NCBI GenBank assembly: GCA_016839625.1
Contig: JAEOTY010000022.1
Location: forward strand, 1 to 60,501
Reading direction: 5' to 3'
DNA: 60,501 nt
Source of the DNA: Candidatus Hodarchaeota archaeon
GTDB lineage: Archaea > Asgardarchaeota > Heimdallarchaeia > Hodarchaeales > Hodarchaeaceae
Shown here: piece after piece, positions 18,501-54,826 of the stretch
Layout of the letters: each line of letters starts with the position of its first letter
Position numbering within the stretch: the stretch's first letter is position 1
Made by a program: the position numbers and the translations under genes
Notes under the pieces: model-generated
Told to the model about the DNA's origin: nothing
The model's input: the letters and a program-made list of their open reading frames with translations, nothing else
Database searches by the model: none

Positions 18501-20030
18501 GTGACCAAACTAAACTATTGTAGAGGGTATATCATGATGTGTAAGAAATTTCATTGCTTTATTATTGGTTTCGTTATCCTATTGATGATTTTGCCGATAA
18601 CTGGAGTCATTAGTAACACTGAAGTTGTTAATGATTACTATTTTTCTGTCCCGCAAGAAACAGTGAATGTTAGTATCAACTTAGATGGATCTGCGGATAT
18701 TGAATATCGGATTACTTTCAAAGTGGAACCTGGGGGACAAACTATTGATATTGTGGATATTGGGTTTCCTAACAAGCATTATGATCTTGGAAGTGTTACC
18801 GCTGATGTAGATGGGCATACTATCACAGATATAAAAGTTTCAGAGGCGATAGATATTGGTGTGGAAATCCATCTCGGTACATATGCAATCACTGACACAG
18901 GAACTTTACACGTTCGGGGAAACCAGCCGTACATGGTATTTGAAGATACTGAGGAGGAGGAAATGGCTTCAGTAGAATTTGGAAACACTTGGTGGGGTTC
19001 TGCTTATACCACGGGTTTTACAAACTTAACTACACGAATTATTTTTCCCGCTACTGTAGACGCATCAACTTATACCAAGTGGCACCGATTACAACCAGAC
19101 CAGCAATACAGCTTATCAAACGGTCGTAAGGTATTCGAATGGCATGAGCCAAATGCGCTGCCTGATAGACAGTACCAATATGGAGTTTCTTTTCCTAAGG
19201 AAGGTGTGACATGGCATACGGGTATCCCTCCCACCACAGAAGAGCTTCTGATAATGATAGCCGTTGTTGGTGGCGTGATAATTGTTATTATTATTGTAGT
19301 TATATCTTATAGCAGGAAGCGGCGTCGATTGATGGATTACATCCCGCCTTTTGTCTCTGTTCCCACGGCTGGCCCCAGAACTGACCTCCGTAGAGAAGAG
19401 GTGGCAATTGTCCTGGAGAAACCAGTGAATGTTACGATTTCAATGATTATTCTCACCCTAACCCAGAAAGGCCTGCTACGACAGCTTTCATCTGACAGTC
19501 CTCTCCTTGAACCCGTCCGAGGGGCTCCAAGAAAGCATATCCGTAAATATGAGCGAGTTGTTCTTAGCTCTATTCGTCCAGATTTCAGTCTTGATGAGGA
19601 TGATATGGTAAAAGCCGTATCTAGCCTAGTAAAGTCCACTCAACGACGTACACGCGGCTATTCTTATGAAAGAACTATGGAATATTATGAAAACTTAATT
19701 CGAGACTCCATTGCAACAATTAAATCAGAACCCGATCCACGGAATGTTCCTGCTGAAGCTTGGTTTTGGGCAATCTTGGATGAGGAATTCTTACCTGATT
19801 TAGAAGTACAAATCACAGAGCACGAGGATTATTACGATTACTATCCTTGGTATTACCATTATGGTTATCATCATTGGTATTGGGTACCTCGGGGCCGATC
19901 TTTCACAAGCCGTTTGACGAGAATTAGCCATCCGATTCCTCGGAGTAGTAGTGGGGGTTCTAGAGGAGGCGGTGGGTGTGCCTGTGCTTGTGCTGGTTGT
20001 GCCTGTGCCTGCGCTGGAGGTGGACGCTAA
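18501..20030 (+). CDS. DUF2207-like bitopic membrane protein with an aromatic-rich segment and a C-terminal Cys-Ala repeat tail
   Basis: It has a signal/TM, then ETVNVSINLDGSADIEYRITFKV (DUF2207-like N-domain). A TM (IMIAVVGGVIIVIIIVVISY) followed by RKRRR puts the C-terminus in the cytoplasm. It also has YYDYYPWYYHYGYHHWYWVP and the tail SSSGGSRGGGGCACACAGCACACAGGGR. The probable true start is the ATGATG at 18534. Confidence 0.7.
   Translation: MTKLNYCRGYIMMCKKFHCFIIGFVILLMILPITGVISNTEVVNDYYFSVPQETVNVSINLDGSADIEYRITFKVEPGGQTIDIVDIGFPNKHYDLGSVTADVDGHTITDIKVSEAIDIGVEIHLGTYAITDTGTLHVRGNQPYMVFEDTEEEEMASVEFGNTWWGSAYTTGFTNLTTRIIFPATVDASTYTKWHRLQPDQQYSLSNGRKVFEWHEPNALPDRQYQYGVSFPKEGVTWHTGIPPTTEELLIMIAVVGGVIIVIIIVVISYSRKRRRLMDYIPPFVSVPTAGPRTDLRREEVAIVLEKPVNVTISMIILTLTQKGLLRQLSSDSPLLEPVRGAPRKHIRKYERVVLSSIRPDFSLDEDDMVKAVSSLVKSTQRRTRGYSYERTMEYYENLIRDSIATIKSEPDPRNVPAEAWFWAILDEEFLPDLEVQITEHEDYYDYYPWYYHYGYHHWYWVPRGRSFTSRLTRISHPIPRSSSGGSRGGGGCACACAGCACACAGGGR
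19977..20015 (+). repeat. TGY-GCY hexanucleotide repeat encoding (Cys-Ala)3-Gly-(Cys-Ala)3
   Basis: The sequence reads tgtgcc tgtgct tgtgct ggt tgtgcc tgtgcc tgcgct, immediately before gga ggt gga cgc taa. Confidence 0.9.
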
Positions 20031-21350
20031 ATGACGGAAAATAGTAAATTAGTGCATTTAAGAGAAGGAGAGGATGGGGATATTCGAATGCATCTTCGTC
20101 ATCAAGGTGATAGTGGTCTCCTTATCATTAATGCCTCGAGAATATTGAACCTTAACTCTACTGCAACGTTTTTTGTAGAAAGAATCTTGAAAGGTAAAGC
20201 GGACTCTGAGATTGTTAAGGAGCTTAGAAGTCTGTATCGCGTCAGTGAACAGCAAGCTAATACTGATCTACAATCCCTGAAAGAAATGATACACACGTTA
20301 TCAACTACCGATGATATTTGTCCCATTCATTCCCTTCAGATGGAAGAATCGAATTTAACAGAGCTTCCTCTGACTGCTCCTTTACGTATGGATCTAGCTA
20401 TCACCTATCGGTGTAATAATAAATGTGAACACTGTTATAATCAACCAGACTCACCTAATGCAACTGAATTAGATACAAACTATTGGAAATCCATCTTAGA
20501 GCGACTTTGGGGGATATCCATTCCCCATGTGACTTTTACAGGAGGTGAACCCACGTTACGCTCCGATCTGCCTGATTTAATTGATCACGCAGAGGATATC
20601 GGAATAGTTACTGGACTTATTACAAATGGGCGAAATCTGAAGGATGCCAACTACCTAGATAAGTTAGTAAAAATGGGGCTTGATCATATTCAGATAACAT
20701 TTGAAAGCGTAGATGAAAGAATTCACAACCAAATGGTGGGAAATGATCAAGCGTGGGCAGAAACGGTTGAGGGAATAAGAAATGCCATAGATACACCCCT
20801 TTATACTCTGACGAACACCACACTCACTCGAATAAATGCCCCCAAGATAGAAGAGACTATTGAGTTTCTGAATAGCCTTGAGGTTGAACAATTCGCTTGT
20901 AACTCTATAATATATGCTGGAAAAGGGAAAAATATGTCACTGATTGCCTTAACAGAAAGCGATCTGATCCCTATTATCGAATCGATTCAGGATGCAGCAG
21001 ATGATTATGGGATGCAGTTTATTTGGTATACTCCAACCAGATATTGCGAACTTGACCCCAACAACCTTGGGTTAGGAGTCAAACGATGCTCAGCATCTCA
21101 TTTAGCTATGGCGATCGAACCCAATGGAACTGTTATTCCATGTCAGAGCTATTATAAAGGACTAGGCCATATTCTAAATGACAGCTGGGAGAGTATTTGG
21201 AATAATCCTCTATCAAAGGAACTTCGAACTCATACAAACGTCCCTGATGAGTGTCAGAATTGTAACCAACTTGAGATTTGTGGTGGTGGCTGTCCTCTGA
21301 GTTTTTATCGTGAGGAATATCTATGTCCCGAGAGCCAAGCCAACGATTGA
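20031..21350 (+). CDS. Radical SAM enzyme with an N-terminal PqqD/RRE-like domain and a C-terminal SPASM domain (peptide/protein-modifying type)
   Basis: CNNKCEHC (CxxxCxxC, nt 20412-20435). The N-terminal LLIINASRILNLNSTATFFVERILKGKADSEIVKELRSLYRVSEQQANTDLQSLKEMIHTL is PqqD-like. C-terminal Cys clusters are CSASH...IPCQSY and CQNCNQLEICGGGCP. Its ATG directly abuts the TAA of the upstream gene. Confidence 0.85.
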   Translation: MTENSKLVHLREGEDGDIRMHLRHQGDSGLLIINASRILNLNSTATFFVERILKGKADSEIVKELRSLYRVSEQQANTDLQSLKEMIHTLSTTDDICPIHSLQMEESNLTELPLTAPLRMDLAITYRCNNKCEHCYNQPDSPNATELDTNYWKSILERLWGISIPHVTFTGGEPTLRSDLPDLIDHAEDIGIVTGLITNGRNLKDANYLDKLVKMGLDHIQITFESVDERIHNQMVGNDQAWAETVEGIRNAIDTPLYTLTNTTLTRINAPKIEETIEFLNSLEVEQFACNSIIYAGKGKNMSLIALTESDLIPIIESIQDAADDYGMQFIWYTPTRYCELDPNNLGLGVKRCSASHLAMAIEPNGTVIPCQSYYKGLGHILNDSWESIWNNPLSKELRTHTNVPDECQNCNQLEICGGGCPLSFYREEYLCPESQAND

Positions 21351-22114
21351 AATCTAAGGATCAAATCTCCACCGAGGATGATGTCAGATACTTTGATGAG
21401 CTCTACCAAGGACAACTAGATTGGACTGCTTCAACCAGAAAGCATTTATACCGACAGATGGATCTCTTTCATGCAGAACAGGTTTTAGAAGTAGGATCTG
21501 GTACAGGAGCGATTTTGAGGGAAATTCATACAATAAATCCTCGTGCTAGGCTCTTTGGTCTTGACCGAAATTTAGTGGCGTTAGAGTATTCCCAAAAAAA
21601 GGCGACAGATGAGACCTTGATTCTAGGAGATGCTACTCTCTTACCATTCTCTTCCCAAAGCTTTGATATTGTGGTATGTCACTATTTCCTTATGTGGATT
21701 GAAGATCCTATTACTACTTTACGTGAAATAATGCGAGTAACTCGTTTTGGGGGATGGATAGCCTGTTTAGCTGAACCTGATTATGGAGGTCGGTTGGATT
21801 TCCCTGATAGTGAAATATGGAAAGATCTTCTTCTAAACTCTCTTTCTGCAGCGGATCCTTTTATAGGAAGAAAATTAAGAACATATTTTTATCAAGTTGG
21901 ACTGAAAGCACATGTTGGATTACAATCAGTGGTTTTACCTTCTGACACGGTAAATAACCTTTATGAGGCCGAACTTGCAAAGCTAGAGCGATTTATTTCC
22001 CCTGAGAATAATATAAAATTAAAAAAATTAACTGAATTTTTTAAGACTCATAAAACTGAAGAGCTGTTCAGCTTCATGCCAGTCTTCTATGCACTTGCTC
22101 ATAGAACAGAATGA
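21323..22114 (+). CDS. Class I SAM-dependent methyltransferase
   Basis: VLEVGSGTGAILREI (motif I), LGDATLLPF and FDIVVCHYFLMWIEDP. It overlaps the rSAM gene by 28 nt. Confidence 0.8.
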   Translation: MSREPSQRLKSKDQISTEDDVRYFDELYQGQLDWTASTRKHLYRQMDLFHAEQVLEVGSGTGAILREIHTINPRARLFGLDRNLVALEYSQKKATDETLILGDATLLPFSSQSFDIVVCHYFLMWIEDPITTLREIMRVTRFGGWIACLAEPDYGGRLDFPDSEIWKDLLLNSLSAADPFIGRKLRTYFYQVGLKAHVGLQSVVLPSDTVNNLYEAELAKLERFISPENNIKLKKLTEFFKTHKTEELFSFMPVFYALAHRTE

Positions 22115-25625: not shown

Positions 25626-28193
25626 GTGCGAATAATGAGATCCAATGGTAAGTTTTCAACACTGAAAATTGTATCTCAGTATTTTGAAGATTTTTTTTAT
25701 AACTTAAGCCCAAAGGTAGAAAAGCATATTCTCAACCAACTTAGTAATCAACAGCCTATACAAGAAAAGTTTCATGCGGTTCTAAATGAAATTTCTTGGT
25801 CTGAGTGGCAAAATTCTCGCTTCCAATTCGTTAACCCTATAACAAAGATACTCATTGCGTTAATTTACGATAAAGTTCTTCTCACATTAAAAAAAATGGA
25901 AAACTCAACTGAGCTTAACGAATTTTTAAGTAAAATTTCGATTCTTGCCGCCTCTCAAGTTAAAAGTTCCAATAATAAGGCTGAACTGAAGGATACCTTT
26001 TTTCAGTTGATTGAAGGTATCTGGAAATTAGCAGATCAATGCGAGCCACGAATCCCTATTCTGGATCCAGAGTCTTTTCCTCTCAATAAGCTCCTTGAAT
26101 TTGTTTTCAATGAGTGGGAAAGCTGTCTTGCAACTATAAATCTAATCCAACAGATTGAACAGGATAGTGGATGTGAAAATCAATTATTGCTGCCTTATAT
26201 TTTCGAGATAGGAATACCAGGCCAACGAAAACAACAGCAAGGACAAATTTTCACACCCGATCGAGTTGCAAGTTTTATTTGTAAGCAGAATATTTCAGCA
26301 AAAACGACTAGAGTTCTCGATCCTGCGTGTGGTACTGGTATTTTTCTATTAGAAGCGCTAAGAATTTTCGCCGATTCTCCCTCAGAACCTCATCAAATTG
26401 AGTTAATTGGTATTGAAAAAGATCCTTACCTAGCAGATATTGCTGAGAGTGCTATTAATTATTTTCTTTTGGTTAATTCTATTTCTCTAGACAATTGGAA
26501 AATTCACAGAGACGATTTCTTCAATTGCTCACCAGAATCGTGTGGATTATTTCGAGATAATGTAGATCAAACGGTATTACTGATGAATCCCCCATATACT
26601 CGTCATGAGCAATTAAAAGAGGAATATAAGAAGTATTTAGCAGATCAAATCAACTTTGATATAGCAGATATTAACAAAAATCATACTGCTTTTGGGAGTG
26701 TATTGTCAGGGAGATCTGGATTATATGTTTTTTTTCTTATTCATGCAACAAGATTTCTCAGGCCAGGGGATCATCTTGGTATGATAATACCCAATTCCTG
26801 GCTAGATGTGGATTATGGTCATCAATTACAGCATTTTATTTTGAATCATTATTTCATTGAATCTATTATTATTAGTCGTCTAGAAAGATTTATTCAGACT
26901 GTAGATGTGAATACTGCTGTTTTAAAACTAATCAGAAAGAAAATTGAAAATAGTAATAGAGAAATAGAAATCCAGAACCAAGTGGCGTTTATATCGATTG
27001 AGAAGACATCAGACCTTAACTATATTCAAGGCTCTTCCACATCAAGAGATTCCTCAGATGTTAGGATTGTTTCAGTAGAACAGAACAGTCTTTTTGCGAT
27101 ATCTAAGTGGGGTGTTTATCTTCGAGCTCCTTTAATCTATTTCCAATTGTTGGAACATCTTGAGAAGAGGATGGTTACTCTCGGAGACATAGCTCATGTA
27201 CGAAGAGGATTTACCAGCGGTGCTAATGACTTTTTTTATGTAGGTAAACCAGGAAAGTCCAACACATTCTTTAATTCTAGCTGGGATCCTGAAACAGGTG
27301 ATTTAAATCTATCTATAAAGAATGATACACTAGTTAGTCAGTTTCATGAGCAAGGTTTTCAAGTGAAAGACCCTATGTTTATTATTGAAAAAGGGTATTG
27401 GATGCACCTTTCTAATTCTTCCCAAAAGAATTTTACTTGGGAGTTTTCCCTTCAAAATGATAAAGGTGAGACTTGGGTACCCAACTATTTAGTGAAATCT
27501 CCTCGGGAGCTCTCAACATATGAAATCCATGAGGAAAACCTGAAATATATTGTGATCTTGATTTCAGAAGATACTTATTGGAATGGCTTGCAAACTGGTA
27601 TAAAAAATTATATTCGATGGGGAGAACAGTGGGTTCCTTCAGTAGGAAAAAAATTTAACCAAAGACCTACCTGTCTGTCACGAAAGAATTGGTATGAATT
27701 ACCTTCGAAAGAATATAAGTTATTTAACCTTTTATGTTTGATGACAATTAATGATCGGTTTTCCTTCTTCTATAATCCCCGCGGATTCCTTTTTGACGCT
27801 CGCCTTTATGGTATACGTTTTCTGCAAGTTACCAAATTTTTTGCCTACTATTTCTTATTTCTTAACTCTATCATCACAACAATTCAACTCGAGCTTTTAG
27901 GGAGAAGTAATTTAGGTGAAGGGGCATTAGATGTCAAAGTTTATGAGTACGAGTTACTTAAAATCCCAAGTTTTAAATTCTTTGAAGAAAATCAGTTAAA
28001 AAGTGTAATCAATATCTTTTCACGTGTTTTGGAGTGTTCTCCGTTCTCTGTTATTCAGGGAAAACCAAAATCAATTAAACAGTTGACAGATGCTTTTGTT
28101 TCTAATCTATTTACTCATTCCTCAGGGTTCATTAACAGCTTATTTGAGGAATTGAAGAATTTAGTTCGAATGCGTATTGAAAAAGCAAGATAA
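25626..28193 (+). CDS. Large gamma-class N6-adenine DNA methyltransferase-like protein (Eco57I/type IIG-like architecture, no nuclease motif seen)
   Basis: QIFTPDRVASFI (motif X), VLDPACGTGIFLLEAL (motif I), LLMNPPYTRHE (motif IV, NPPY). The C-terminal region has LGDIAHVRRGFTSGANDFFYV and LNS...GEGALDV, which is TaqI_C-like specificity. Length 855 aa. Confidence 0.8.
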   Translation: MRIMRSNGKFSTLKIVSQYFEDFFYNLSPKVEKHILNQLSNQQPIQEKFHAVLNEISWSEWQNSRFQFVNPITKILIALIYDKVLLTLKKMENSTELNEFLSKISILAASQVKSSNNKAELKDTFFQLIEGIWKLADQCEPRIPILDPESFPLNKLLEFVFNEWESCLATINLIQQIEQDSGCENQLLLPYIFEIGIPGQRKQQQGQIFTPDRVASFICKQNISAKTTRVLDPACGTGIFLLEALRIFADSPSEPHQIELIGIEKDPYLADIAESAINYFLLVNSISLDNWKIHRDDFFNCSPESCGLFRDNVDQTVLLMNPPYTRHEQLKEEYKKYLADQINFDIADINKNHTAFGSVLSGRSGLYVFFLIHATRFLRPGDHLGMIIPNSWLDVDYGHQLQHFILNHYFIESIIISRLERFIQTVDVNTAVLKLIRKKIENSNREIEIQNQVAFISIEKTSDLNYIQGSSTSRDSSDVRIVSVEQNSLFAISKWGVYLRAPLIYFQLLEHLEKRMVTLGDIAHVRRGFTSGANDFFYVGKPGKSNTFFNSSWDPETGDLNLSIKNDTLVSQFHEQGFQVKDPMFIIEKGYWMHLSNSSQKNFTWEFSLQNDKGETWVPNYLVKSPRELSTYEIHEENLKYIVILISEDTYWNGLQTGIKNYIRWGEQWVPSVGKKFNQRPTCLSRKNWYELPSKEYKLFNLLCLMTINDRFSFFYNPRGFLFDARLYGIRFLQVTKFFAYYFLFLNSIITTIQLELLGRSNLGEGALDVKVYEYELLKIPSFKFFEENQLKSVINIFSRVLECSPFSVIQGKPKSIKQLTDAFVSNLFTHSSGFINSLFEELKNLVRMRIEKAR

Positions 28194-28222: not shown

Positions 28223-30484
28223 ATGTTATATAAACACTCTACTGTTGTTAAGAAAAAACGACGTGGACAATATTTCACACATCCTGCAATTGCGCGGGAA
28301 ATTGTCCAAGATATTTGCGAATCCATTGTTTTAGAGCGTTTTTGGAAACCATGGGAAGCTCTTAAGGAATCTGCAGATTATTCAAAGATTCAACACCTAC
28401 TTGATCGAGTTTTAGCTTTACAGTTTGTTGATCCAGCCATGGGAAACGGAGTTTTCTTGATTGAAGTCTTTCATTACTTTGAGAAATTCATACAGCAGTT
28501 ATGGGAAAGGACTTGTTCATCTTCATTTTTAGTTTTTCTTTGTGATTATTTTCAGCAAAGATTAGCTTTAGATTTTTCATTACTTGAAGAAACAGATGAG
28601 TTAACATTAGATATTTGGAAACTCCATATTATAAGATCGATGATATATGGAGTTGATCTTGACCCAAAAGTTGTCGAACAGGCTCGTAATAATATCATTA
28701 GTGAATTTTTTACTTCCCAAATTAAACCATTAGCAAGAATTTTTACTCATCTTAATTTAAAAATCGGAAATTCGTTATTTTCTCCTTTACGAATGGATAA
28801 TGAAAACAGAGCTCAGTTATATTCTCAATTTCATTCAGATATTAATGTTCTTCTTCTTCAAAGGAAGCAAATCCAAGAACGTTGCTGGAATGCTTTTAGC
28901 GATCTAGAATTAGATCGTTTATTTGAGGAAAATGAGACACAAAAAGATCGTCTTGCAAATCAGCTGATTACTCAAGTTGCTTCCATTCCTGGGTTCTCTT
29001 TTTTATTAAAAGTTGAAAATACTGAAGTTAATCCATTTTTATGGGAGCTTGAATTTCCAGAGGTTTTTTTCCCTGATAAACCTGGATTTGATGCCGTTAT
29101 TGGAAATCCTCCTTGGGATAAATGGAAACTTTATGATCGTGAATGGTTAGGATCTACTGCTATCGGAAAATCAGATCACGCTCAGCAAATCAGTGAAATT
29201 CTAAAGAATGACGCTGAATCTCATTCAGATTATTTAAAATTAAAAGAATTTTACAAGGTGACCACAAAATATTTCAACAAGTATTTTCAGTGGCAGCCAG
29301 GTGAAAAAAACCTATTCAAGCTTTTTTTCGAACGTTTTTACGATCTTTGTTGTTGTTCTAATGGTTTTGTGGGAGTCATACTTCCTGGAGGGTTTTTAGG
29401 TGAGTATTACAGTCAACCTTTACGGGAAATGCTATTAAAACAAATGCAGCTTCACTATATTATTGAAATCATCTCAAATCAAGAGATGTTTCCTGATGCT
29501 GAACCTGGTCTAAGTATTCTTATTATTCGGGCCCAAAAAAATAGTACAGGAAAATTATTCTCATTTATCAAAGGGATTACTTCAATAGAAGCTTTTACTA
29601 AACTATTCAAAGAAGATTTTAAGAAACAATCTGATAATCTCATTTTCTTTGCTCAAGAGGATATTCTTAATTACTCCCCTAGATGTATCATTCCAGCTGT
29701 ACGAAATCAATTGGAATTGAGAATATTTCAGAAAATGACCAAATATCCTTCTCTTTCTTCTGCGATATGGGGTTGTAACACTTCTCGTGGAGTCGACATG
29801 ACAAATGATCGTGATTTATTGGTTAAAAATCAAACACAATTTCCGCTTATAGAGGGACGCCATTTAGTTCGTCTTGGGTTTGATGATACGTCCCCTCGGT
29901 ATTGGATACGATCATTTGAAGAATATAAGAAAAAGATCCCATTCTGGAATCAAACAATTATTGTATGGAAAAATTTCTCGGGAAATCATCGTCGTCGTCG
30001 AATGCGGATAGCTATTCTTCCACCAGGAGCAGTTATTTCAAATAGTGTGATTTGTTTGTATAATTTTCCGTCCATACCTGACGTACACTATTATCTGGCT
30101 GGGATTATGTGTTCAATTCCCTTTGAATTTCGTATACGTCAACTTTGTTATGGAATAAATATCAATCAATATGTTATCGATAGTATAACAGTCCCCTTTT
30201 TTGATCCTACTCAAGATCATCATCGAAAACTAGTAGCTACTGTCAAGCAATTCCTTCCACGCGGAAAAGAATGGGCAAAACGGAAAATGGAGGCTATTTC
30301 CTCGATTTCAAAAGCAAGGTTAGAGGTAGATTACCAAAATACAATCACTAAAATCGATGCATTAGCTGCTTCGATCTATAACCTGACCAGATCTGAATTT
30401 GAAACTACTTTGAATGCTCATTCTCAATTAGAGGATCCATACCGTATTCAGGCACTTAACCATTTTGACTTAGATAAACCTTAA
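28223..30484 (+). CDS. Large gamma-class N6-adenine DNA methyltransferase-like protein
   Basis: RGQYFTHPAIAREIV (motif X), FVDPAMGNGVFLIEVF (motif I), AVIGNPPWDKW (motif IV, NPPW) and PLIEGRHLVRLGF. Length 753 aa. It lies 29 nt downstream of the previous methyltransferase. Confidence 0.8.
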   Translation: MLYKHSTVVKKKRRGQYFTHPAIAREIVQDICESIVLERFWKPWEALKESADYSKIQHLLDRVLALQFVDPAMGNGVFLIEVFHYFEKFIQQLWERTCSSSFLVFLCDYFQQRLALDFSLLEETDELTLDIWKLHIIRSMIYGVDLDPKVVEQARNNIISEFFTSQIKPLARIFTHLNLKIGNSLFSPLRMDNENRAQLYSQFHSDINVLLLQRKQIQERCWNAFSDLELDRLFEENETQKDRLANQLITQVASIPGFSFLLKVENTEVNPFLWELEFPEVFFPDKPGFDAVIGNPPWDKWKLYDREWLGSTAIGKSDHAQQISEILKNDAESHSDYLKLKEFYKVTTKYFNKYFQWQPGEKNLFKLFFERFYDLCCCSNGFVGVILPGGFLGEYYSQPLREMLLKQMQLHYIIEIISNQEMFPDAEPGLSILIIRAQKNSTGKLFSFIKGITSIEAFTKLFKEDFKKQSDNLIFFAQEDILNYSPRCIIPAVRNQLELRIFQKMTKYPSLSSAIWGCNTSRGVDMTNDRDLLVKNQTQFPLIEGRHLVRLGFDDTSPRYWIRSFEEYKKKIPFWNQTIIVWKNFSGNHRRRRMRIAILPPGAVISNSVICLYNFPSIPDVHYYLAGIMCSIPFEFRIRQLCYGININQYVIDSITVPFFDPTQDHHRKLVATVKQFLPRGKEWAKRKMEAISSISKARLEVDYQNTITKIDALAASIYNLTRSEFETTLNAHSQLEDPYRIQALNHFDLDKP

Positions 30485-33188
30485 TAATGTGTATTTCGTC
30501 TGGGGTCAGACCATATAGTCCGAATATAAGTTCATTCAACTGTACCTCTAGATCTTTCCTTTTACTAGCATTTTTATCTGTCAATTTAGATGCGACTTCC
30601 ACAATTGATTTGTATTCTGGTTTAGCAGGATCAGGAACTATAAGTGGAAAATTTTGGATTTGTTTGGGATAATATTCGAAAAGACCACCTAGATCCTTAA
30701 TAGAATTTAACGCATAATATGTGAGCACTTCTGAATTCAAGATGGCTACTAGAAAGAGAAGAAAATCTTTCCTTGAGAATTTCTGTTTGGGAATTATCCA
30801 AACCACATCTTTTGATGAAAGATTGCCTCTCCAATCTATTGCAAAGGTATTCAAACTAGCTTTATAGGGTGATACAATTTTTAAGGAACTCCACTCCATC
30901 GTTTTTCTTTCATCACCAGATCGCCACAAATAAAATTCCAAAACACGACTTCTATTTAATAAAAGGGCTTTGTTTTGTTCAAGGTAATTCATCACTTTAT
31001 TATTTTCTTTTATTTCATGTTCGCGATAACTAGGAGCAAAAAGAACCTCTCTTCCTGTTTCTTCTACAAAAAATCGCTTTATATCTTTTCCTTTAATCCA
31101 AGACCTAATGTGGTTTAGATCAATCTTCAATACCTGCGAAAAATAATATTGGTCTTTGGGTGCAAAAACTTGATCACAACCAGTTTCAATTCCCTTACTA
31201 ATGTTACTAACATCGTTTAACTTCATATTTGAAACTAATTTGATATGATTAAGGAGTTTTAGCGTCTGGGGGTCAAGTAATTTCCACTTTTCTGGTCTTA
31301 AATCAGATTGATAAATTCTTTTTGTTTCTCTAATAACTTTATCAATTCCCTTGTGGTATTTATGATAAGCAAAACTCTGATTGGAGGAAAAGGATCCTTT
31401 CTTCAAGAATAAAATAATATTCTTGATGTTGGCTTTTTTGAAAATAGAAAACATTGCTAAATCGTAGATTTGAATAATTCCAGATGATTGTAAAATAAAT
31501 TCCCTAATTTTCGTTGCATATACACTATGCAATAGATATTTCGGAAGAATAAATGATAATATTCCATTATCTGCACGTAAAGCTGAAATTGCTCGATAAA
31601 TAAAAAAATATGATAAATCATTATTTCCTGTGTAGATTATTGGATACTCTACATGCAACATTTTGCGTGTAGTCGTCGGTAAATCTGTTAATGCTATATA
31701 AGGAGGATTTCCAACGATTAAGTCGAATTCTTGGGTATTATCTCCAAAATTTATCCAATGAAATTTCTTTGGAATTGAATAGGCTTTGCATATTACCTTA
31801 GAAGAGGATATTGCATCCTCTTCAGAGTTAAGTGGATGTGTAAAAACAGCATAGAGGGTATAGGATGAAGAAGGTGACTGTGAAAGAGAAAAACGAATAT
31901 ATTTCCTAATTTTTTTGTCTAGTTTATGTTTTTCATTATTCCAGCGAGCCCTATCTCCTTCTAAAATGAAATATTTGATTGTGTTTTTCTTTAAGAACTC
32001 TTCGAGGACCATGCCAAGATACCTCAAATTTCGAAAAGATTTTGGAGGCATCGTTAATTCGTAAAGAACAAATTGATTGAGCATTTTGAGGTCATATTGA
32101 TCATTTAACAGATCTTTTCTCTGTTTCAACTTCATTTTTGGCAGATTATTATTCCCAAAATCTGATGGTAAGGTTTGAAATCCAAAAAGGCTATCTCCCT
32201 CTATAATATTGCATTTAAATGAACAATCAGCTTTTAAATCCCTGTCCTCTTGGCAATTTATCCACAGCCAGAATTTAAGAGAAGTAATTTTAATCGCTAA
32301 AGGATCTGTATCTAACCCAAATAGGTTATTTTTGACTATTTTAATTTTTAATTTCTGAGTAGATATTTTTGGTTTAAGTTGTTTCGAAATATTCAACATT
32401 TGTTTTGCAGCAGCAAATAAAAACACACCTGTCCCGGTTGCTGGATCTAGAATTTTTATTCTCTCAAATGTCCTTAGAAATAAAGATTTCAATTCTTCGT
32501 CTTGTTCTAATATGCCCTGTTGACAATCAGATAGTGAATTAAATTCATTAAAGCCATGAAAAGTTATCTTTATCCAATTAAGCAGGCTTTCTTCAGTTAT
32601 GTGAGCTGCTAGAGGATAGGGTGTATAAACAACACCCCAATTACATTTAGTAGAGGATTCATGTGTTTTTAATTGAGCTGTAATTTCATCGAAGATTTCT
32701 AATGAAATTATTCCCTTCTTTTTGAGTTTTGAATCATTGTAGCTTCGCTCCCACTGAAATTTTGTAGATAGTTGATCTGCTATTGCACCCCAATTCATTG
32801 TTTTTAATGGGCTGTTCCAAATCTTTTCTTTTTTGCTAAAATTTTCACTAACCAGTAATTTTACAATATTTTCCGGAATTGATAAATCCTTCATTGAAAG
32901 AATTATTTCTTCAGGATTACCATAACAGTTGTAGACTTCTGACCAATTATCAAACCTTTTATTATTGAATAATGGGATATTATTTGGATTGAAGAATAGA
33001 AGACAGATGAATTGTATTATAAGGTCATTACATCTTTGCGATTTTAGTCTTGTTTCCTTTAGATCAATATTAATCTTTAATAAACTTAATTGAGAGTAGA
33101 TTTCTAATAGAATGTTTGTAATTTCTTTAGGAATCTCAGATACTCGCGAAAATTTAGTCCATGAATAAGTGATGTCTATTTCCTCCAT
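30456..33188 (-). CDS. Large gamma-class N6-adenine DNA methyltransferase-like protein
   Basis: WGVVYTPYPLAAHI (motif X), ILDPATGTGVFLFAAAKQ (motif I), DLIVGNPPYIALTD (motif IV) and C-terminal AILNSEVLTYYA...LGGLFEYYPKQIQNFPLIVP (TaqI_C-like). Length 910 aa. Its 3' end overlaps the convergent gene by 29 nt. Confidence 0.8.
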   Translation of the reverse strand: MEEIDITYSWTKFSRVSEIPKEITNILLEIYSQLSLLKINIDLKETRLKSQRCNDLIIQFICLLFFNPNNIPLFNNKRFDNWSEVYNCYGNPEEIILSMKDLSIPENIVKLLVSENFSKKEKIWNSPLKTMNWGAIADQLSTKFQWERSYNDSKLKKKGIISLEIFDEITAQLKTHESSTKCNWGVVYTPYPLAAHITEESLLNWIKITFHGFNEFNSLSDCQQGILEQDEELKSLFLRTFERIKILDPATGTGVFLFAAAKQMLNISKQLKPKISTQKLKIKIVKNNLFGLDTDPLAIKITSLKFWLWINCQEDRDLKADCSFKCNIIEGDSLFGFQTLPSDFGNNNLPKMKLKQRKDLLNDQYDLKMLNQFVLYELTMPPKSFRNLRYLGMVLEEFLKKNTIKYFILEGDRARWNNEKHKLDKKIRKYIRFSLSQSPSSSYTLYAVFTHPLNSEEDAISSSKVICKAYSIPKKFHWINFGDNTQEFDLIVGNPPYIALTDLPTTTRKMLHVEYPIIYTGNNDLSYFFIYRAISALRADNGILSFILPKYLLHSVYATKIREFILQSSGIIQIYDLAMFSIFKKANIKNIILFLKKGSFSSNQSFAYHKYHKGIDKVIRETKRIYQSDLRPEKWKLLDPQTLKLLNHIKLVSNMKLNDVSNISKGIETGCDQVFAPKDQYYFSQVLKIDLNHIRSWIKGKDIKRFFVEETGREVLFAPSYREHEIKENNKVMNYLEQNKALLLNRSRVLEFYLWRSGDERKTMEWSSLKIVSPYKASLNTFAIDWRGNLSSKDVVWIIPKQKFSRKDFLLFLVAILNSEVLTYYALNSIKDLGGLFEYYPKQIQNFPLIVPDPAKPEYKSIVEVASKLTDKNASKRKDLEVQLNELIFGLYGLTPDEIHIIKVYLSQNG

Positions 33189-34208: not shown

Positions 34209-37200
34209 ATGTCGAAATCAAGGCGGTCTGAACCTTCTTATGCAGGCTATCGCTCTTGGTTTCAATCATTTCTGTATAATCAGCGAGAAAACATCCCCAT
34301 TTTCATCCTAGATTTTGAGACCCATAGTTATTGGGAAGATACGTATGAAAACCAGGAATCGAAACTGGTAAATGGGATTCAGATTTATTTTTTAGATGAA
34401 AATCATCAGAAACATAAAGCTTTCTTGAGACATGAACCATATTATTATCTCCTATTGGACAGTAATCTCTCCTCTAGCGAGACCAATCGTATAATGGCTC
34501 GAATTAAAGAAATTGGAGAGAAACAAGTAAGTAAAGTAGAGAAAGGAAATTATTACGATGCAGCTAATCTCACTTTTCTTGTTAAAAAACCTTTTATCAA
34601 GGTTACAGTTGATCGTCCAGGATCGGTTCCGACTCTACGCGCAAAATCTGAAGAAATATCTGGAATTAAAGAATGGAGAGAAGCGGATGTCCTATTTCAC
34701 CATCGTTGTGCGATCGATCACAATATCAGGGTAGGCGCATGGTATCAAGCAGAGATCACTGGTGGTGTAATCCAAAATCTTTCCTTAATTCCCAATAAAG
34801 CTCCCCCTCATTTGAAAATTCTAGCTTTTGATATTGAAACAGTTTTTGAATTGACTCGTGATCCTAATCCCAATAAAGATGCAATTTCCATGATTTCGTT
34901 GTTTACTGGCGATAAGAACGTTCTTCTTGTCAATTCAAATGTTGTAAAATCGAATAATCTTCAAGATATTGAAATAATCTTAAGACAAAGTGATGAGAAT
35001 AACCTGATACCTTGGGTCGATTGGGAAAATTCCGACGGTAAAATAGATTCATCCACGATTCTCGAGCGATTTCCAGTAAAATTTGTTATAACAAAAACAG
35101 AAAAAGAACTATTGCAATTATTCTATCAATTTATTAGAGAATATCAACCTGATATTCTCACAGATTTTTTTGGAGGTCGTTTCGACATCCCTTTTCTCGC
35201 TGTTCGATCTGAGAAGCATAAAATTTCATTAGAAAAAGAGACTGGTTTTAAAATCCTATTCAAAAATAGTCAAAGAGCTTTGGTTAGAAAAGATTTATAC
35301 AAGTATTATTCTGCTGCTAATATTGATCATGTATCTGGAGCAGGAATTATCCATTTAGACGCATATTTGTTTAATGAAAAATATAGTTATCTTCCAAAGA
35401 AGGATTTAGGCCTCAAACCTAGTGTTGAAAAGAAGCTAAAAATCAAACCAATAGGAAGGGAAGCATTATTTAATATTAAAGAGGATCCAGTTGGAGCAGC
35501 AGCTTATGCTTGTTGCGATGGATACATTACTTGGAAATACGTCCGAGAATTAGTCGTAGATTTTTTTATTTCAATGGGTCAAATGTTTCCTGTTTCCGCG
35601 TCGGAATTGTTAACTCGACGTGCTGGAACACTCGATGATCTTCTAATTGATGCTGAAGATCATCAACATGGAATCATAGGACGGAGGAGAGTAGGACAAA
35701 ACGAAATCGATTCTTTTTCACCTAGCATTCATATTGAATCCTTAGCGTACACAGGGGGCCTTGTTGAAGCTCGAAGACCAGGGATATGGCGACGTGATCT
35801 CTATTATGATTATACGGTTAATAAAGAAGCTGTAAGAAGCCTCAAAAAAATCGTCCAAAAAGTAATTGCAAAAGAAAGCAAAATGCTGGCTAAGAAAGTT
35901 ATTAAAGAAGAATTTGATAAGCTTCTCTTAACCAGCATCGGAGGAGTGACAGTAGAGTATTCTGAAGATCCAGTCAAATTTCTCAAACAATTTGAAGTTG
36001 AACTCTTAAAAAATGGCACACCACCTCAAAAGCTCACGAAACAATTAGATTACGTACGAAACATTTTGGAAGAGATTTCTGCTTATCATCCAGTGAACGT
36101 TGATGAGGTTACTACTGATATTCTAGCCCAAATTGACCAATTGTCTTCCCTGAGTGGAAAAACTCAACTGCACGGTATACACGTTGACGTTACTTCAATG
36201 TATCCGTCCCAAATTCGGCAATATAAACTTCAACCATCAGGGATCGTTCCCTTAACCATGTGTCGTATGTGTGATCTGGCGGAGGCTGACAATAGTTGTT
36301 TTTTTGAGGGCGACTGGGTCATTAAACTTACTGCTCATCGTCCGTGCCGCTTCAAATCGGAAGAATCTCGGAGATGCCCTCACTCGGTCTGTACCGCGGA
36401 GATCGAGGCTAAATGTAAGAATTATGAACCAATTCAATCAAATATTTCCCGTTCGCTTGAACTCTTCACGTTTGATGGAAAGAAGACTGAAGCTTTTATT
36501 CTTAAGGGATCTGAATTTGAGAATGTCCCAATTAATCAGACATACTTTGGATCAAGTATACCAAATAATCCCTTTGTTACCCTTCAACAATGGCTCAAGA
36601 ACTCGGTAGACGCAACACAATTGACAGCTACTTTAGATCAGAATCATTTTGTGGTATTTGATGACGCTCCTAAAAATCTTAAACTCCCAGCTAATGTTTT
36701 TATGAGCCTTGACGTAAGAACCAAGAAAATTTCCATTCTTTTATCAGTGAGTTCGCGTGTGTGTCAAAAAGCATACGATTTTATTGTTCGAATCATGGAT
36801 GACTTTTTCAACACACGTGTTCGTCATAAAATTGAAACTAATCGTCTAACGCAAATTATTATACAGAAAAAAGCGAATAACCAACCAATTACCCCAGAGT
36901 TATTGCGTCAACAAAAATATCATGATAGTACCCAATTAGGGATGAAGGTTCCTTTAAATTCTATCTATGGTCTACTTGGTATGAAAGGAGGGGTTAGGAA
37001 TGCCAGTACTCCCTGTGCAGGAATAACAACAAAGTTATCAGCAGATTTGATATATTGGGCCGCTAATCAGCTGGAACTAATTGGATTAGTGACAGAACTC
37101 GACACTGATGGTGTTTGGCTCTGGGTTCCAAAGTTATTTCCCTTGGATTTTCCTGTTACGATTCATAACCACCTTAAAGAAAACAAATCAAAAACATTTA

Positions 37201-38588
37201 GTGTAACACTTATTGATAAAATTCTCAATGAGAAAGTAGCTACATTTTCGAGAAATGACAATTATTGGATGAATGACGGTAAATCAATCACCCGTGCAAG
37301 TAAGAGTCTCATTCAATTCGAGCAAGATGGTCCTTATGACTTCCAATTTGTTATGGGAAAGAAAAAATATATTGTTTTCAATCATGATGAACAAAGACAA
37401 ACGTGGGTAGAGAAAGAATTAACAGGTTTAGAATCCAAAAGAGCAGATTTCTCAAAATTACAAAAATATTTTCAAGAAAAGGTCATCGGCGCTTATTTAG
37501 AACAATACAATCCAGATGACCCAAGAACACTTGGCGAAGTGTACCAAAACGCAATTAATACCGCCAATCTCATTCGGTCTGAAATGGTTGAGGGGCGAAT
37601 AGACCCGAGTTATTTTGTAAAACCAAAGGCAATTAATAAACCATTAAGGGCTTATAAGTCGAAATTACCTCAGGTATCAGCTGCTTATATTTTAAAGGAT
37701 CTCGGTTTCTCTGTGGATCCTGGTACACGGATCCAAATGTTAAATATCAAGGGGAACCATGTTATCCCCCGTCAGATTTTTGATTTTGAATTTAGTAAAA
37801 TTAAAGAAGTATTAGTTAAACACGCAATCGCTACTCTCAGTTTTATGCTCGGTGAACTCTCAACAAAAGAAGATCTAAAGAAGTTAATCGATGTCCGTCA
37901 ATATACTGAAGATGTTTTTGGCCCTGGACGAATCTACGATCGGATGATCCGCTATCCTATGGAAGCTCAACAATTAACTTCACATTCTCAACAGGAATTA
38001 GACTTGAATGATATCGAAACATATCCCAAAATCCCTGAAAAAGCATTAACAACTCAAGATTCCCAAGAGCAACAGTCGATTAGCCCAGAAAAAAAGAAGT
38101 TAGCTATGAAGAAAAGACGAAAGAGTAGCAAGTCCTCAATAAAGACTAAGAAACGATCTGGGAGCACAGTGACTTTTTCTCAAGAAAAACCAACGCGTCC
38201 GAGTTTAGAAAGCCTCTTTCAAAGCGATGTGAAAACCTCTGACTCTTTATCAATGAACTTTGCTAATGAAATTGTTAAAAAACCAATTAGATCTAAGAGA
38301 ACAGAAAAAATCAAAAAGGCTAAGACACACTCAAACTCTGTGAATAAAGCCAAACAGGAAGATATTAACAAAGAAATCCCCCTATTTACTTCAGAAGAGC
38401 TTCAAGAGCTGGAGAAAAACGAAACTTTTTCGAATGGTTCAAATAACAACCAGGAAAACTATGAATTGGAGTTGGATACTCCCGCTGAAGAACAGTTGGT
38501 ATGTTCGGAATGTGGAGCATTAGTTCATTCAGGAGAAATTACGGATGAAGGGTGTAAATTTTGCGGAGGACGTGTAATTACTCAATAA
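34209..38588 (+). CDS. polB: Family B DNA polymerase, Pol-epsilon-catalytic-core-like, with a C-terminal zinc ribbon
   Basis: Exo I ILAFDIET, Exo III YACCDGYITW, motif A HVDVTSMYPSQI, motif B KVPLNSIYGLLG, motif C TELDTDGVW (DTDG as in Pol epsilon, not DTDS). CRMC-x8-C lies 21 aa after the motif A Met. The C-terminal CSEC-x13-CKFC closes the protein. Length 1459 aa. Confidence 0.9.
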   Translation: MSKSRRSEPSYAGYRSWFQSFLYNQRENIPIFILDFETHSYWEDTYENQESKLVNGIQIYFLDENHQKHKAFLRHEPYYYLLLDSNLSSSETNRIMARIKEIGEKQVSKVEKGNYYDAANLTFLVKKPFIKVTVDRPGSVPTLRAKSEEISGIKEWREADVLFHHRCAIDHNIRVGAWYQAEITGGVIQNLSLIPNKAPPHLKILAFDIETVFELTRDPNPNKDAISMISLFTGDKNVLLVNSNVVKSNNLQDIEIILRQSDENNLIPWVDWENSDGKIDSSTILERFPVKFVITKTEKELLQLFYQFIREYQPDILTDFFGGRFDIPFLAVRSEKHKISLEKETGFKILFKNSQRALVRKDLYKYYSAANIDHVSGAGIIHLDAYLFNEKYSYLPKKDLGLKPSVEKKLKIKPIGREALFNIKEDPVGAAAYACCDGYITWKYVRELVVDFFISMGQMFPVSASELLTRRAGTLDDLLIDAEDHQHGIIGRRRVGQNEIDSFSPSIHIESLAYTGGLVEARRPGIWRRDLYYDYTVNKEAVRSLKKIVQKVIAKESKMLAKKVIKEEFDKLLLTSIGGVTVEYSEDPVKFLKQFEVELLKNGTPPQKLTKQLDYVRNILEEISAYHPVNVDEVTTDILAQIDQLSSLSGKTQLHGIHVDVTSMYPSQIRQYKLQPSGIVPLTMCRMCDLAEADNSCFFEGDWVIKLTAHRPCRFKSEESRRCPHSVCTAEIEAKCKNYEPIQSNISRSLELFTFDGKKTEAFILKGSEFENVPINQTYFGSSIPNNPFVTLQQWLKNSVDATQLTATLDQNHFVVFDDAPKNLKLPANVFMSLDVRTKKISILLSVSSRVCQKAYDFIVRIMDDFFNTRVRHKIETNRLTQIIIQKKANNQPITPELLRQQKYHDSTQLGMKVPLNSIYGLLGMKGGVRNASTPCAGITTKLSADLIYWAANQLELIGLVTELDTDGVWLWVPKLFPLDFPVTIHNHLKENKSKTFSVTLIDKILNEKVATFSRNDNYWMNDGKSITRASKSLIQFEQDGPYDFQFVMGKKKYIVFNHDEQRQTWVEKELTGLESKRADFSKLQKYFQEKVIGAYLEQYNPDDPRTLGEVYQNAINTANLIRSEMVEGRIDPSYFVKPKAINKPLRAYKSKLPQVSAAYILKDLGFSVDPGTRIQMLNIKGNHVIPRQIFDFEFSKIKEVLVKHAIATLSFMLGELSTKEDLKKLIDVRQYTEDVFGPGRIYDRMIRYPMEAQQLTSHSQQELDLNDIETYPKIPEKALTTQDSQEQQSISPEKKKLAMKKRRKSSKSSIKTKKRSGSTVTFSQEKPTRPSLESLFQSDVKTSDSLSMNFANEIVKKPIRSKRTEKIKKAKTHSNSVNKAKQEDINKEIPLFTSEELQELEKNETFSNGSNNNQENYELELDTPAEEQLVCSECGALVHSGEITDEGCKFCGGRVITQ

Positions 38589-47913: not shown

Positions 47914-48804
47914 TCACTGTTCCATGTTAAGTCCAATAAATGTCTTGTCAGGGCATGTAAAATAGATAGAATTGCCTGCTGGGATTGGAATACTCAGATC
48001 ATCTAATGCCATGATTGAACTAGCATCAGGTTTTATATAAATTACAAGAATCGGTTTTGCTGTCTTACAACTAGTAGTTTTTGTTTTCTTTGGGACACTA
48101 TAAAAGGCAATTCTGCCTCCTTGAGATGCTGTTGAAATATGAAGAGTAGACATTACAAAGTCTTCGTTTGAAGCTTGGAAGAGAATCTTAGCCTTAGTTT
48201 CAGTTACCATAGTGTTTTCTTCCCTGTGAAAATATGTTTTATCAAGTCTTTTTGGTTTAATTGGTGCTGCTAGTTGTTCAACTTTTGGTTCAGGAGCAGA
48301 AGGAGGAAGAGGTGCTTCTATCGCAGAAATCGTCTTTTCATCTATGAACTTTGATTTTGTAGATGCCACTTTCTTTAGTGTACTTGGATGAGTGATTACT
48401 TGTGCTGGTTGGGGGTCGGGCAGGTCAGTAGAAAATGATGGAGGTGAAACCTCCAGAAGCGCTTCAGCCTCAATTCTCTTCCCACTAAGAGAATTCATAA
48501 AGTCCCTGAATCTAGCTGTTTCATTTCCTTGTTCTTCTGTTGAGACGCGGTGTGTTAGACCTTTTTCCATCCTCATTTGACGGGCGATCTGTGACGAGAT
48601 AAACCGTTTCCTAACATTCGAATTAGATCCTGTCCAAATGAAAATTTGTCGATCCTCATCATTTACAAAAATCAGGACTTCGGAGTCCCTTAAATCTTCT
48701 TCAGGGGAGGTGAATGTAACTGGAACATATTCTCCATCCATCGATGGTACAAAAACATGTACTTGCTGTTCGCTCATTTTGATGCCTTCTAAAAGAATTA
48801 TCAC
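47914..48804 (-). CDS. Gelsolin-domain protein with an uncharacterised C-terminal domain
   Basis: The N-terminal about 100 aa read LRDSEVLIFVNDEDRQIFIWTGSNSNVRKRFISSQIARQMRMEKGLTHRVSTEEQGNETARFRDFM. This follows the gelsolin-repeat pattern (D.fIL....iy.W.G..s...e...a...A......g...v.eg.E...F...F). A Pro-rich linker and a beta-rich domain follow. Confidence 0.55.
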   Translation of the reverse strand: MIILLEGIKMSEQQVHVFVPSMDGEYVPVTFTSPEEDLRDSEVLIFVNDEDRQIFIWTGSNSNVRKRFISSQIARQMRMEKGLTHRVSTEEQGNETARFRDFMNSLSGKRIEAEALLEVSPPSFSTDLPDPQPAQVITHPSTLKKVASTKSKFIDEKTISAIEAPLPPSAPEPKVEQLAAPIKPKRLDKTYFHREENTMVTETKAKILFQASNEDFVMSTLHISTASQGGRIAFYSVPKKTKTTSCKTAKPILVIYIKPDASSIMALDDLSIPIPAGNSIYFTCPDKTFIGLNMEQ

Positions 48805-54280: not shown

Positions 54281-54826
54281 ATGATACTTTCGTACCAAGA
54301 TATTATAGCAGCTATCGAGGCTAAAGAGATTAGTATTTCTCCTTTTGATAAATCTGCTGTAGGACCGTGTTCCATTGACCTTAAACTGGGGGATACATTT
54401 TTAGTATTTCACCATGGCAGGCTGTTCCGACCAAACGATCGGAAGGCTATATTAAAGAACTCAGAGATTTTTCAAATTGAAAAAGATGAAACGTTCTTGT
54501 TGTCACCAAACCAATTTGTCTTAGCTTCCACCCTTGAAAGAATTTCTATATCAAAGAATTATGCTGCCACCCTAGAAGGAAAATCTTCCATCGCTCGTCT
54601 AGGAATAGTTGTTCAGGCAGCAGGTTTAGTTAATCCAGGTACAGGAATAAAAAAGCCTTCCACCTTGACTCTCGAAATCGCTCATCGTGCGAACTCACCC
54701 GTTGAATTAAGCCCAGGCATGCCAATAATTCAAATAATATTTCATCAATTAACTTCAAAGGCCACTGTTGGATACGATGATCGAGAAAAGAGTATGTACA
54801 TAGGTCTCGGTGAACCTAGGGTCTAG
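54281..54826 (+). CDS. dcd: dCTP deaminase
   Basis: MILSYQDIIAAIEAKEISISPFDKSAVGPCSIDLKLGDTF, LEGKSSIARLGIVV and LTLEIAHRANSPVELSPGMPIIQIIF. Length 181 aa. Confidence 0.85.
   Translation: MILSYQDIIAAIEAKEISISPFDKSAVGPCSIDLKLGDTFLVFHHGRLFRPNDRKAILKNSEIFQIEKDETFLLSPNQFVLASTLERISISKNYAATLEGKSSIARLGIVVQAAGLVNPGTGIKKPSTLTLEIAHRANSPVELSPGMPIIQIIFHQLTSKATVGYDDREKSMYIGLGEPRV

Follow-up and report, generated by a model that had tools for sequence, protein, structure and literature searches.

The window analysed here, a 60,501-nucleotide stretch of a Candidatus Hodarchaeota archaeon contig (JAEOTY010000022.1, assembly GCA_016839625.1, forward strand), harbors an intact open reading frame (ORF; 34209–38588, + strand, ATG start) for a family B DNA polymerase of 1459 residues. 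By its sequence, the window protein is a member of the archaeal PolB group B10, a known family of Pol-epsilon-like PolBs of the Hodarchaeales, and its catalytic core is, on alignment, homologous over the whole length to the active N-terminal half of eukaryotic DNA polymerase epsilon (Pol epsilon). It is likely, and we hold this reading with considerable confidence, that the gene encodes a single-chain B10 polymerase with intact polymerase and proofreading sites, in which a cluster of the CysX type staples the palm insertion. Neither the gene family nor its kinship to Pol epsilon is new; apparently unreported in the literature searched are the invariance of CysX in archaea, a second set of four cysteines, a PCNA-interacting-peptide-like (PIP-like) motif, and a palm insertion without a match to the P-domain of Pol epsilon. 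The features on which the argument rests are as follows (positions are those of the window).

34209–38588, + strand: complete gene of a B10 Pol-epsilon-like family B polymerase (one ORF; Pfam DNA_pol_B_exo1 and DNA_pol_B; best PDB matches are Pol epsilon)
36186–36206, + strand: motif A DVTSMYP, residues 660–666, with catalytic D660, M664 (equivalent to yeast M644), and steric-gate Y665
36261–36299, + strand: CysX-type cysteines 1–3, C685-x2-C688-x8-C697, aligned onto yeast C665, C668, and C677
36300–36761, + strand: palm insertion between CysX-type cysteines 3 and 4, residues 698–851, at the P-domain site of Pol epsilon and about twice as long
36345–36416, + strand: second four-cysteine set, C713-x9-C723-x4-C728-x7-C736, specific to the archaeal family
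36756–36770, + strand: RVCQK with CysX-type cysteine 4 (C852, nucleotides 36762–36764), aligned onto yeast VCQRENPFYV (C763)
37095–37112, + strand: motif C ELDTDG, residues 963–968, whose Glu is characteristic of the PolEpsilonN-like clade

An initial annotation, made from the letters of the sequence, had singled out DVTSMYP, ELDTDG, C685/C688/C697, and C852 in RVCQK, and every one of these coordinates proved exact in the ORF translation. The yeast Pol2 numbering and spacing that it gave (M644; C665/C668/C677) hold on HMMER alignment as well as in PMC6582351, where the CysX ligands are given as C665, C668, C677, and C763. C685 follows M664 by 21 residues, as yeast C665 follows M644, and a phmmer search against the PDB aligned the four CysX-type cysteines of the window protein onto the four yeast ligands. 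The query stretches in this alignment are ‘lqpsgivpltmcrmcdlaeadnscffegdw’ (C685/C688/C697) and ‘rvcqkaydfiv’, the latter facing yeast ‘IVCQRENPFYV’; hence, the suspected resemblance of the C852 context to that of the fourth Pol epsilon ligand is borne out by the alignment onto C763.

All four CysX-type cysteines are invariant in the archaeal members of the family (43 of 43) and present in 17 of 18 Pol epsilon sequences. The offsets of the first three from the motif A Asp (+25, +28, and +37) are the same in nearly all Hodarchaeales homologues and in eukaryotic Pol epsilon, and they are kept in about 134 of the 140 long representatives, mostly Pol epsilon, retrieved by an exhaustive HMMER search. 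Within the segment 676–856 (181 residues), where the 43 archaeal sequences are 27–94% identical to the window protein, 12 columns are invariant across all of these sequences, and four of the 12 are the CysX-type cysteines. Since the offsets are common to both groups and the cysteines are among the few invariant columns, the match in spacing represents more than chance. By this comparison, the four cysteines are the positional homologues of the [4Fe-4S] CysX ligands of Pol epsilon.

The AlphaFold2 (AF2) model places C685 within a short helix (682–686), and yeast C665 sits within helix 664–668 (PMC6582351); a long strand starts at C697, and the strand that ends at C852 immediately precedes the fingers helix. 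These surroundings agree indirectly with yeast Pol2, and the order of the cysteines, three before and one after the palm insertion, matches its “iron staple”. According to PMC6582351, PMC9581978, and the introduction of PMC7544198, no polymerases other than Pol epsilon orthologues have the CysX cluster and the P-domain. The papers describing B10 make no mention of CysX in this group (PMC7544198, PMC12680538, PMC10307638), and no description of CysX in the archaeal family was found in the literature searched, which covered a part of the journals.

Both by sequence and by predicted fold, the best matches of the window protein are Pol epsilon cores, in agreement with the Pol-epsilon-type core proposed at the outset. 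In the phmmer search against the PDB, Pol epsilon cores reached E ~3e-52 vs. ~1e-13 for Thermococcales PolB. A word-index search of 5.8 billion proteins returned three tiers of matches: 62 full-length or partial homologues, the named ones mostly from Hodarchaeales, Hodarchaeota, or Heimdallarchaeota; eukaryotic Pol epsilon (E 1e-51 to 1e-34); and canonical PolBs of ~800 residues (E ~1e-9). Among 1.84 billion representatives, the exhaustive HMMER search yielded 148 matches at E ≤ 1e-30, headed by 16 clusters of the archaeal family and continued by ~130 long proteins (~2000 residues), almost all Pol epsilon. The long proteins that were checked scored far better against Pol epsilon than against B10, and three exceptions among the matches following the archaeal family are CysX-bearing sequences separate from B10. 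The profiles of B10 and Pol epsilon were aligned by hhalign at E ~1e-94 over ~1010 columns.

The confident AF2 model of residues 1–1200 (predicted local distance difference test, pLDDT, 87.2; predicted template modeling score, pTM, 0.84) was compared with the PDB using Foldseek. The whole model superposes best on Pol2 cores: Pol epsilon cores take up all of the top 36 places (E 1e-59 to 1e-48, TM 0.66–0.75), including the Fe–S-containing structures 6H1V and 6QIB. Canonical archaeal PolBs come next (E 1e-32; TMq 0.5 vs. 0.7 for Pol epsilon), and the best viral PolB in BFVD (E 1e-31) is no closer than these. No viral relatives were found in an IMG/VR scan with family-specific peptides or by tblastn of the polymerase half against GenBank phages.

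In a neighbor-joining (NJ) tree (955 columns, 100 bootstraps, one type of outgroup), the archaeal family and Pol epsilon are each monophyletic at 100%, the window protein stands well inside the archaeal clade with LC_3 (P0061), and the two clades join against the canonical PolB outgroup at 100%. The initial annotation had made its claim hinge on a position outside the canonical PolB1/2/3 clades, and this is the position found, with 100% in the NJ tree and E ~1e-9 to 1e-13 for canonical PolBs. Two other assignments were rejected. A canonical archaeal PolB1, PolB2, or PolB3 is ruled out by sequence, fold, exhaustive search, tree, and the ELDTDG form of motif C. A eukaryotic Pol2/POLE orthologue in full is ruled out as well: the window protein lacks PF08490, PF23250, and PF22912 and falls outside the Pol epsilon clade (100%), whereas nearly all full-length eukaryotic matches carry PF08490 and most carry PF23250 and PF22912.

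The family itself was described from LC3 and B3 as a sister of PolEpsilonN that carries a motif C Glu and a single metal-binding motif at the C-terminus (PMC7544198, Kazlauskas et al. 2020, NAR); the initial annotation cited this work correctly, and the group concerned is B10, known since then. The motif C Glu is considered to be a synapomorphy of PolEpsilonN, B10, and G3 (PMC7544198), and E-x-DTDG is found in every family member with an uninterrupted motif C. The family also goes by the name of Hodarchaeales Pol-epsilon-1-NTD-like PolB (PMC12680538, PMC10307638) and has been listed as a Hodarchaeales-specific “epsilon DNA polymerase” (PMC10307638). A scan of GTDB, with one genome per species, using the family-specific segment revealed 23 loci, nearly all in metagenome-assembled genomes labelled Hodarchaeota, Heimdallarchaeota, or Promethearchaeota and a few with another label or none; they include B3_Heim (L018) and Hodarchaeum mangrovi, and all 181 residues of the segment were matched in 21 of the 23.

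With the B10 proteins of LC_3 and B3_Heim, the window protein shares the length class (~1430–1600 residues), DVTSMYP, E-x-DTDG, eight cysteines around the palm insertion, and a single C-terminal CxxC...CxxC. Its identity to LC_3 is 37% over two-thirds of the length, and the members of the LC_3 type differ from it by longer loops, C-x2-C-x14-C, a wider spacing of the second cysteine set, and a PIP-like motif nearer to the thumb. With the Pol epsilon core (yeast Pol2 1–1187/1228, human POLE; 6H1V, 6QIB, 4M8O, 9F6I), it shares the motif A Met, ELDTDG, KK[KR]Y, the CysX offsets, the site of a palm insertion that is held by a 3 + 1 staple of cysteines, and a PIP-like peptide after the thumb. At the same time, identity to this core is 20–25%, and the window protein possesses an extra helical insertion of ~70 residues (549–617) and a zinc-ribbon tail; unlike Pol epsilon, it has no inactive C-terminal PolB half, DUF1744, or C-terminal domain (CTD) with CysA/CysB. 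The likeness to Thermococcales PolB (KOD, 9N, Tgo, Pfu) comprises the family B architecture and the catalytic residues. Canonical archaeal PolBs are ~800 residues long, lack the third cysteine, the palm insertion, and the C-terminal tail, have a motif C without Glu that ends in DTDS, and carry motif A as D[FY][RKA][SG]LYP (SMYP in one case).

The palm insertion sets the archaeal enzymes apart from Pol epsilon. The initial annotation had noticed an insertion before the fourth cysteine, and this insertion is real, with 155 residues between cysteines 3 and 4 in the window protein vs. ~85 in Pol epsilon, but it is not simply a P-domain plus an insert, as no significant match to the fold of the P-domain was obtained. 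Modelled in isolation, residues 676–856 reached pLDDT 81.6 and kept the secondary structure predicted in the full model. When the inserts were compared by hhalign, the alignment was confined to the first ~37 columns of Pol epsilon (~61 columns of B10), at a probability of 96% driven in part by the anchoring Cys and Trp. This result is no more than indicative, since the sets were imperfectly separated, with a few long-insert Pol epsilon sequences inside the “B10” set. Hence, the insertion site and the cysteine staple are common to B10 and Pol epsilon, and similarity of the insertion to the P-domain fold is unsupported but not disproved.

Inside the insertion, the second set (C713/C723/C728/C736), which the initial annotation had overlooked, is occupied by Cys in 42 of 43 B10 sequences and by no Cys in 18 of 18 Pol epsilon sequences; no Pol epsilon with such a set was found among the representatives. 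Model confidence in this region is low (pLDDT 54–57 in the isolated segment and 57–73 in the full model) and the spacing varies across the family, which fits loops organised by a metal. The second site probably binds a further structural metal.

The remaining features of the protein are listed below.

34830–35522, + strand: 3'-5' exonuclease motifs Exo I DIET (D208/E210), Exo II FD (F325/D326), and Exo III YACCD (Y433/D437), (near-)invariant in alignment A1 for canonical PolB as well as for B10 and Pol epsilon
35853–36059, + strand: helical insertion of ~70 residues (549–617) with a yeast Pol2 counterpart of ~13 residues, seen as a gap between HMMER blocks (query 548 = yeast ~586, query 621 = yeast ~600)
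36945–36971, + strand: motif B KVPLNSIYG, with invariant K913, N917, Y920, and G921
37359–37370, + strand: KxY motif KKKY (KKRY in Pol epsilon)
38196–38219, + strand: PIP-like motif RPSLESLF, residues 1330–1337, in a basic low-complexity linker between the thumb and the zinc ribbon
38502–38564, + strand: C-terminal zinc-ribbon-like motif CxxC-x13-CxxC (C1432/C1435/C1449/C1452), kept in nearly all full-length B10

The residues of the exonuclease site (D208/E210, D326, Y433/D437) and of the polymerase site (D660, Y665, K913/N917/Y920, D965/D967, K1052/Y1054) are all present, and their alignment columns are (near-)invariant. The insertion 549–617 is modelled by AF2 as three long helices (539–577, 588–601, and 606–623). 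Pfam recognized generic DNA_pol_B and exonuclease domains only; POL2_thumb was not matched in the window protein, and the zinc-ribbon matches to the C-terminal tail were all sub-threshold. An ORF of 112 residues in another frame inside the polymerase gene (36271–36609) was treated as spurious. Motif C of the close homologues P0006, P0010, and P0027 is interrupted by inteins of ~443 residues (ELD|TDG; after the equivalent of D965), and the window gene carries no intein.

Concerning the tail, a PIP-like motif is found in about two-thirds of the B10 sequences possessing this region, mostly as xQSL[DE]x[LI]F, and as SKNISEFF in the LC_3 type. It resembles the stretches QKKISELF and QSSISKFF located after the thumb in Pol epsilon sequences, and the peptide probably tethers PCNA. 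A single C-terminal metal-binding motif has been described for B10 (PMC7544198), and a yeast two-hybrid assay showed no interaction between the CTD of a Hodarchaeal polymerase and Hodarchaeal DP1 (PMC12680538).

In the mechanism that we favour, by analogy with the yeast and human Pol epsilon, the four CysX-type cysteines would hold a [4Fe-4S] cluster fixing the base of the palm insertion. Acting as an “iron staple”, the cluster would keep the insertion in the conformation needed for binding of the primer–template, so polymerase activity would be cluster-dependent and, hence, oxidation-sensitive. Both the yeast and the human enzyme cease to polymerize and to bind DNA once the CysX cluster is lost (PMC6582351, PMC9581978). 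Of the archaeal additions, the second four-cysteine site inside the insertion would constitute a further structural metal site, and the PIP-like linker peptide would engage PCNA; the third addition is the terminal zinc ribbon. The gene, its motifs, the homology, the conserved cysteines, the family assignment, and the overall predicted fold are shown by the comparisons above; the identity and occupancy of the metal, the role in DNA binding, the binding of PCNA, and a replicative role of the enzyme are inferred.

Several points weigh against this picture. The isolated model of residues 676–856 found no match in the PDB better than E 0.29 and none to Pol epsilon, and with no detectable match to the P-domain fold, the processivity/gatekeeper role of that domain is not simply transferable to the archaeal insertion. 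In crystals of Pol2, zinc can occupy the CysX site opportunistically (4m8o; PMC6582351). The replicative role rests on the loss or decay of PolD reported in the LC3/B3 genomes (PMC7544198). RPSLESLF is devoid of the canonical first Gln of the PIP motif. Finally, the NJ tree has a single type of outgroup and leaves out bacterial G3 and archaeal B8/B9.

The polymerase gene lies among ordinary chromosomal genes, and the window has the look of an Asgard chromosome, with Ras-family GTPases, gelsolin, HMG-CoA reductase, an eIF-2B-family gene, and dCTP deaminases. Four genes for small GTPases of the Ras/Roc/Arf type (2155–2718, 2751–3278, 6916–7545, and 58291–58833, all on the - strand), one for a gelsolin-repeat protein (47914–48804, -), and one for a leucine-rich-repeat protein (14729–16147, +) all encode typical Asgard eukaryotic-signature proteins, in keeping with a chromosome of the Hodarchaeales, and two genes are dCTP deaminase/dUTPase-like (11566–12069, -; 54281–54826, +). 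A run of three genes at 18501–22114 (+), comprising an ORF of 509 residues without a family match, a radical SAM protein with PqqD and SPASM (20031–21350), and a class I methyltransferase (21323–22114), looks like a cluster for modification of a peptide of the ribosomally synthesized and post-translationally modified kind. Directly upstream of the polymerase lie three consecutive large restriction-modification genes of the Eco57I/N6_Mtase type (25626–28193, +; 28223–30484, +; 30456–33188, -), one of them also with MmeI_Mtase and TaqI_C domains; this trio may represent a defence island. No replication partner genes adjoining the polymerase were found within the window.

Relatives of the enzyme also occur on contigs of a different character. 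One family member of 1147 residues (P0055; L001 8001–11444; ENA contig ZHAN22-2_SAMN18200493_METAG-scaffold_250) resides on a contig of 53 kb that looks viral, given its small co-directional genes, its ERCC4, RNase H, and dCMP deaminase genes, and several PHROG matches. P0055 has kept CysX and lost the second four-cysteine set and the tail. In addition, there is a separate, unannotated Pol-epsilon-like family represented by P0211 and about ten relatives (P0229–P0236, with P0106 related), as well as P0178, a further ungrouped CysX-bearing sequence. The motifs of the P0211 family are DV[AS]SMYP, E-x-DTDG where motif C is uninterrupted, and CysX in the form C-x2-C-x8-13-C ... CQK. Its members differ from B10 in having no second four-cysteine set and no zinc ribbon, and most bear a PIP-like motif at or near the C-terminus; where Pfam data exist, they match POL2_thumb, unlike the window protein. 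The insert between cysteines 3 and 4 is short in this family, the fourth cysteine lying at +104 to +121 from the motif A Asp; the corresponding offset is +121 for Pol epsilon and +192 for the window protein.

P0211 itself is encoded at L026 10001–14107 (JGI Ga0452216_000281, 91 kb), and P0231 at L027 10001–15481 on a contig of 242 kb, both contigs being rich in hypothetical genes. The former also carries DNA methylases, TnpB, an SMC-like ATPase, and a gene for PCNA, whose product lies a little nearer to archaeal clamps; the contigs of this family look like mobile elements. The P0211 family belongs inside the Pol-epsilon-like clade as opposed to canonical PolB at 100%, its finer position having a support of 34–43% (NJ). 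Against the Pol epsilon profile, it scores higher than B10 (996/949 vs. 814/807); on this measure, B10 is no closer to Pol epsilon than this family, and we take this as a lead only.

These relatives bear on the question of whether the window gene represents the ancestral archaeal precursor of Pol epsilon. If it does not, its Pol-epsilon-like features say little on the vertical descent of the leading-strand polymerase; we lean against this alternative, but it is a serious one, rivaling the evolutionary interpretation and leaving function aside. It has been proposed by Forterre 2025 (PMC12395588) and Kazlauskas 2020 (PMC7544198), and it is favoured by the restriction of B10 to one archaeal order, by the B10 copy on the virus-like contig, by the three restriction-modification methylase genes just upstream of the polymerase, and by the higher Pol epsilon scores of the CysX-bearing family on the 91–242 kb mobile-element-like contigs. 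On the other hand, B10 and Pol epsilon form two mutually exclusive clades, each monophyletic at 100% and neither nested in the other, and the B10 members are all about equidistant from Pol epsilon (159–204 bits), with no subgroup closer to it than the rest. The surroundings of the window gene are chromosomal, and the nesting of the viral-contig copy inside B10 (98%, NJ) suggests that it was captured from a host and was not the source.

With the fold and homology standing as described, another alternative concerns the metal: the CysX-type cysteines might serve as a purely structural staple, through bound Zn2+ or disulfides, and eukaryotes would have acquired the [4Fe-4S] cluster later. This seems rather improbable to us. 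The zinc modelled at the site in the Pol2 structure 4m8o speaks in its favour (PMC6582351). So do the canonical PolBs of alignment A1, five of seven of which have Cys where the window protein has C685/C688 and C852. In Thermococcales PolB, these positions form the disulfide C428–C442. Cysteines at these places in canonical PolBs suggest that the site may have begun as a simple cross-link. Nevertheless, in B10 all four cysteines, not two, are invariant, and their spacing is that of Pol epsilon. Asgard archaea are described as dwelling mostly in stable subsurface environments (PMC13053709), where cytoplasmic disulfides would be unlikely, and the Fe–S cluster is native in the yeast and human enzymes, even when these are expressed in E. 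coli (PMC6582351, PMC9581978).

Convergence, i.e., a canonical archaeal PolB (B1/B2/B3) that has come to resemble Pol epsilon in its motifs, would agree with the generic Pfam matches and the missing POL2_thumb, but it is refuted for practical purposes by the lead of Pol epsilon in sequence (1e-52 vs. 1e-13), fold (1e-59 vs. 1e-32), and exhaustive search, by a similarity spanning ~1000 aligned profile columns, and by the separation of the Pol-epsilon-like clade from the canonical outgroup at 100% (NJ).

Since the four ligand cysteines are invariant in the archaeal sister family and present in the mobile-element-like family, the Fe–S site probably predates eukaryotes. A more far-reaching version, which we advance tentatively and regard as doubtful, would have the CysX staple ancestral to B10, the mobile-element-like family, and Pol epsilon, with the B10 enzymes being two-centre metalloenzymes whose second four-cysteine set holds a further metal, possibly a second Fe–S cluster, and with the insertion differing in fold from the P-domain. 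In that case, PolEpsilonN may have its nearest relative outside eukaryotes in the family borne by mobile elements and not in the Hodarchaeales gene. Apart from this version, and given the second four-cysteine set and a different insertion, the P-domain appears to have evolved separately in the two lineages, similarity of fold being unsupported though not disproved.

Overall, the value of the finding lies in a conserved CysX site outside eukaryotes, the second four-cysteine set, and the relatives borne by mobile elements. A small single-chain prokaryotic enzyme without the C-terminal half or accessory subunits would allow a direct test of what the cluster does.

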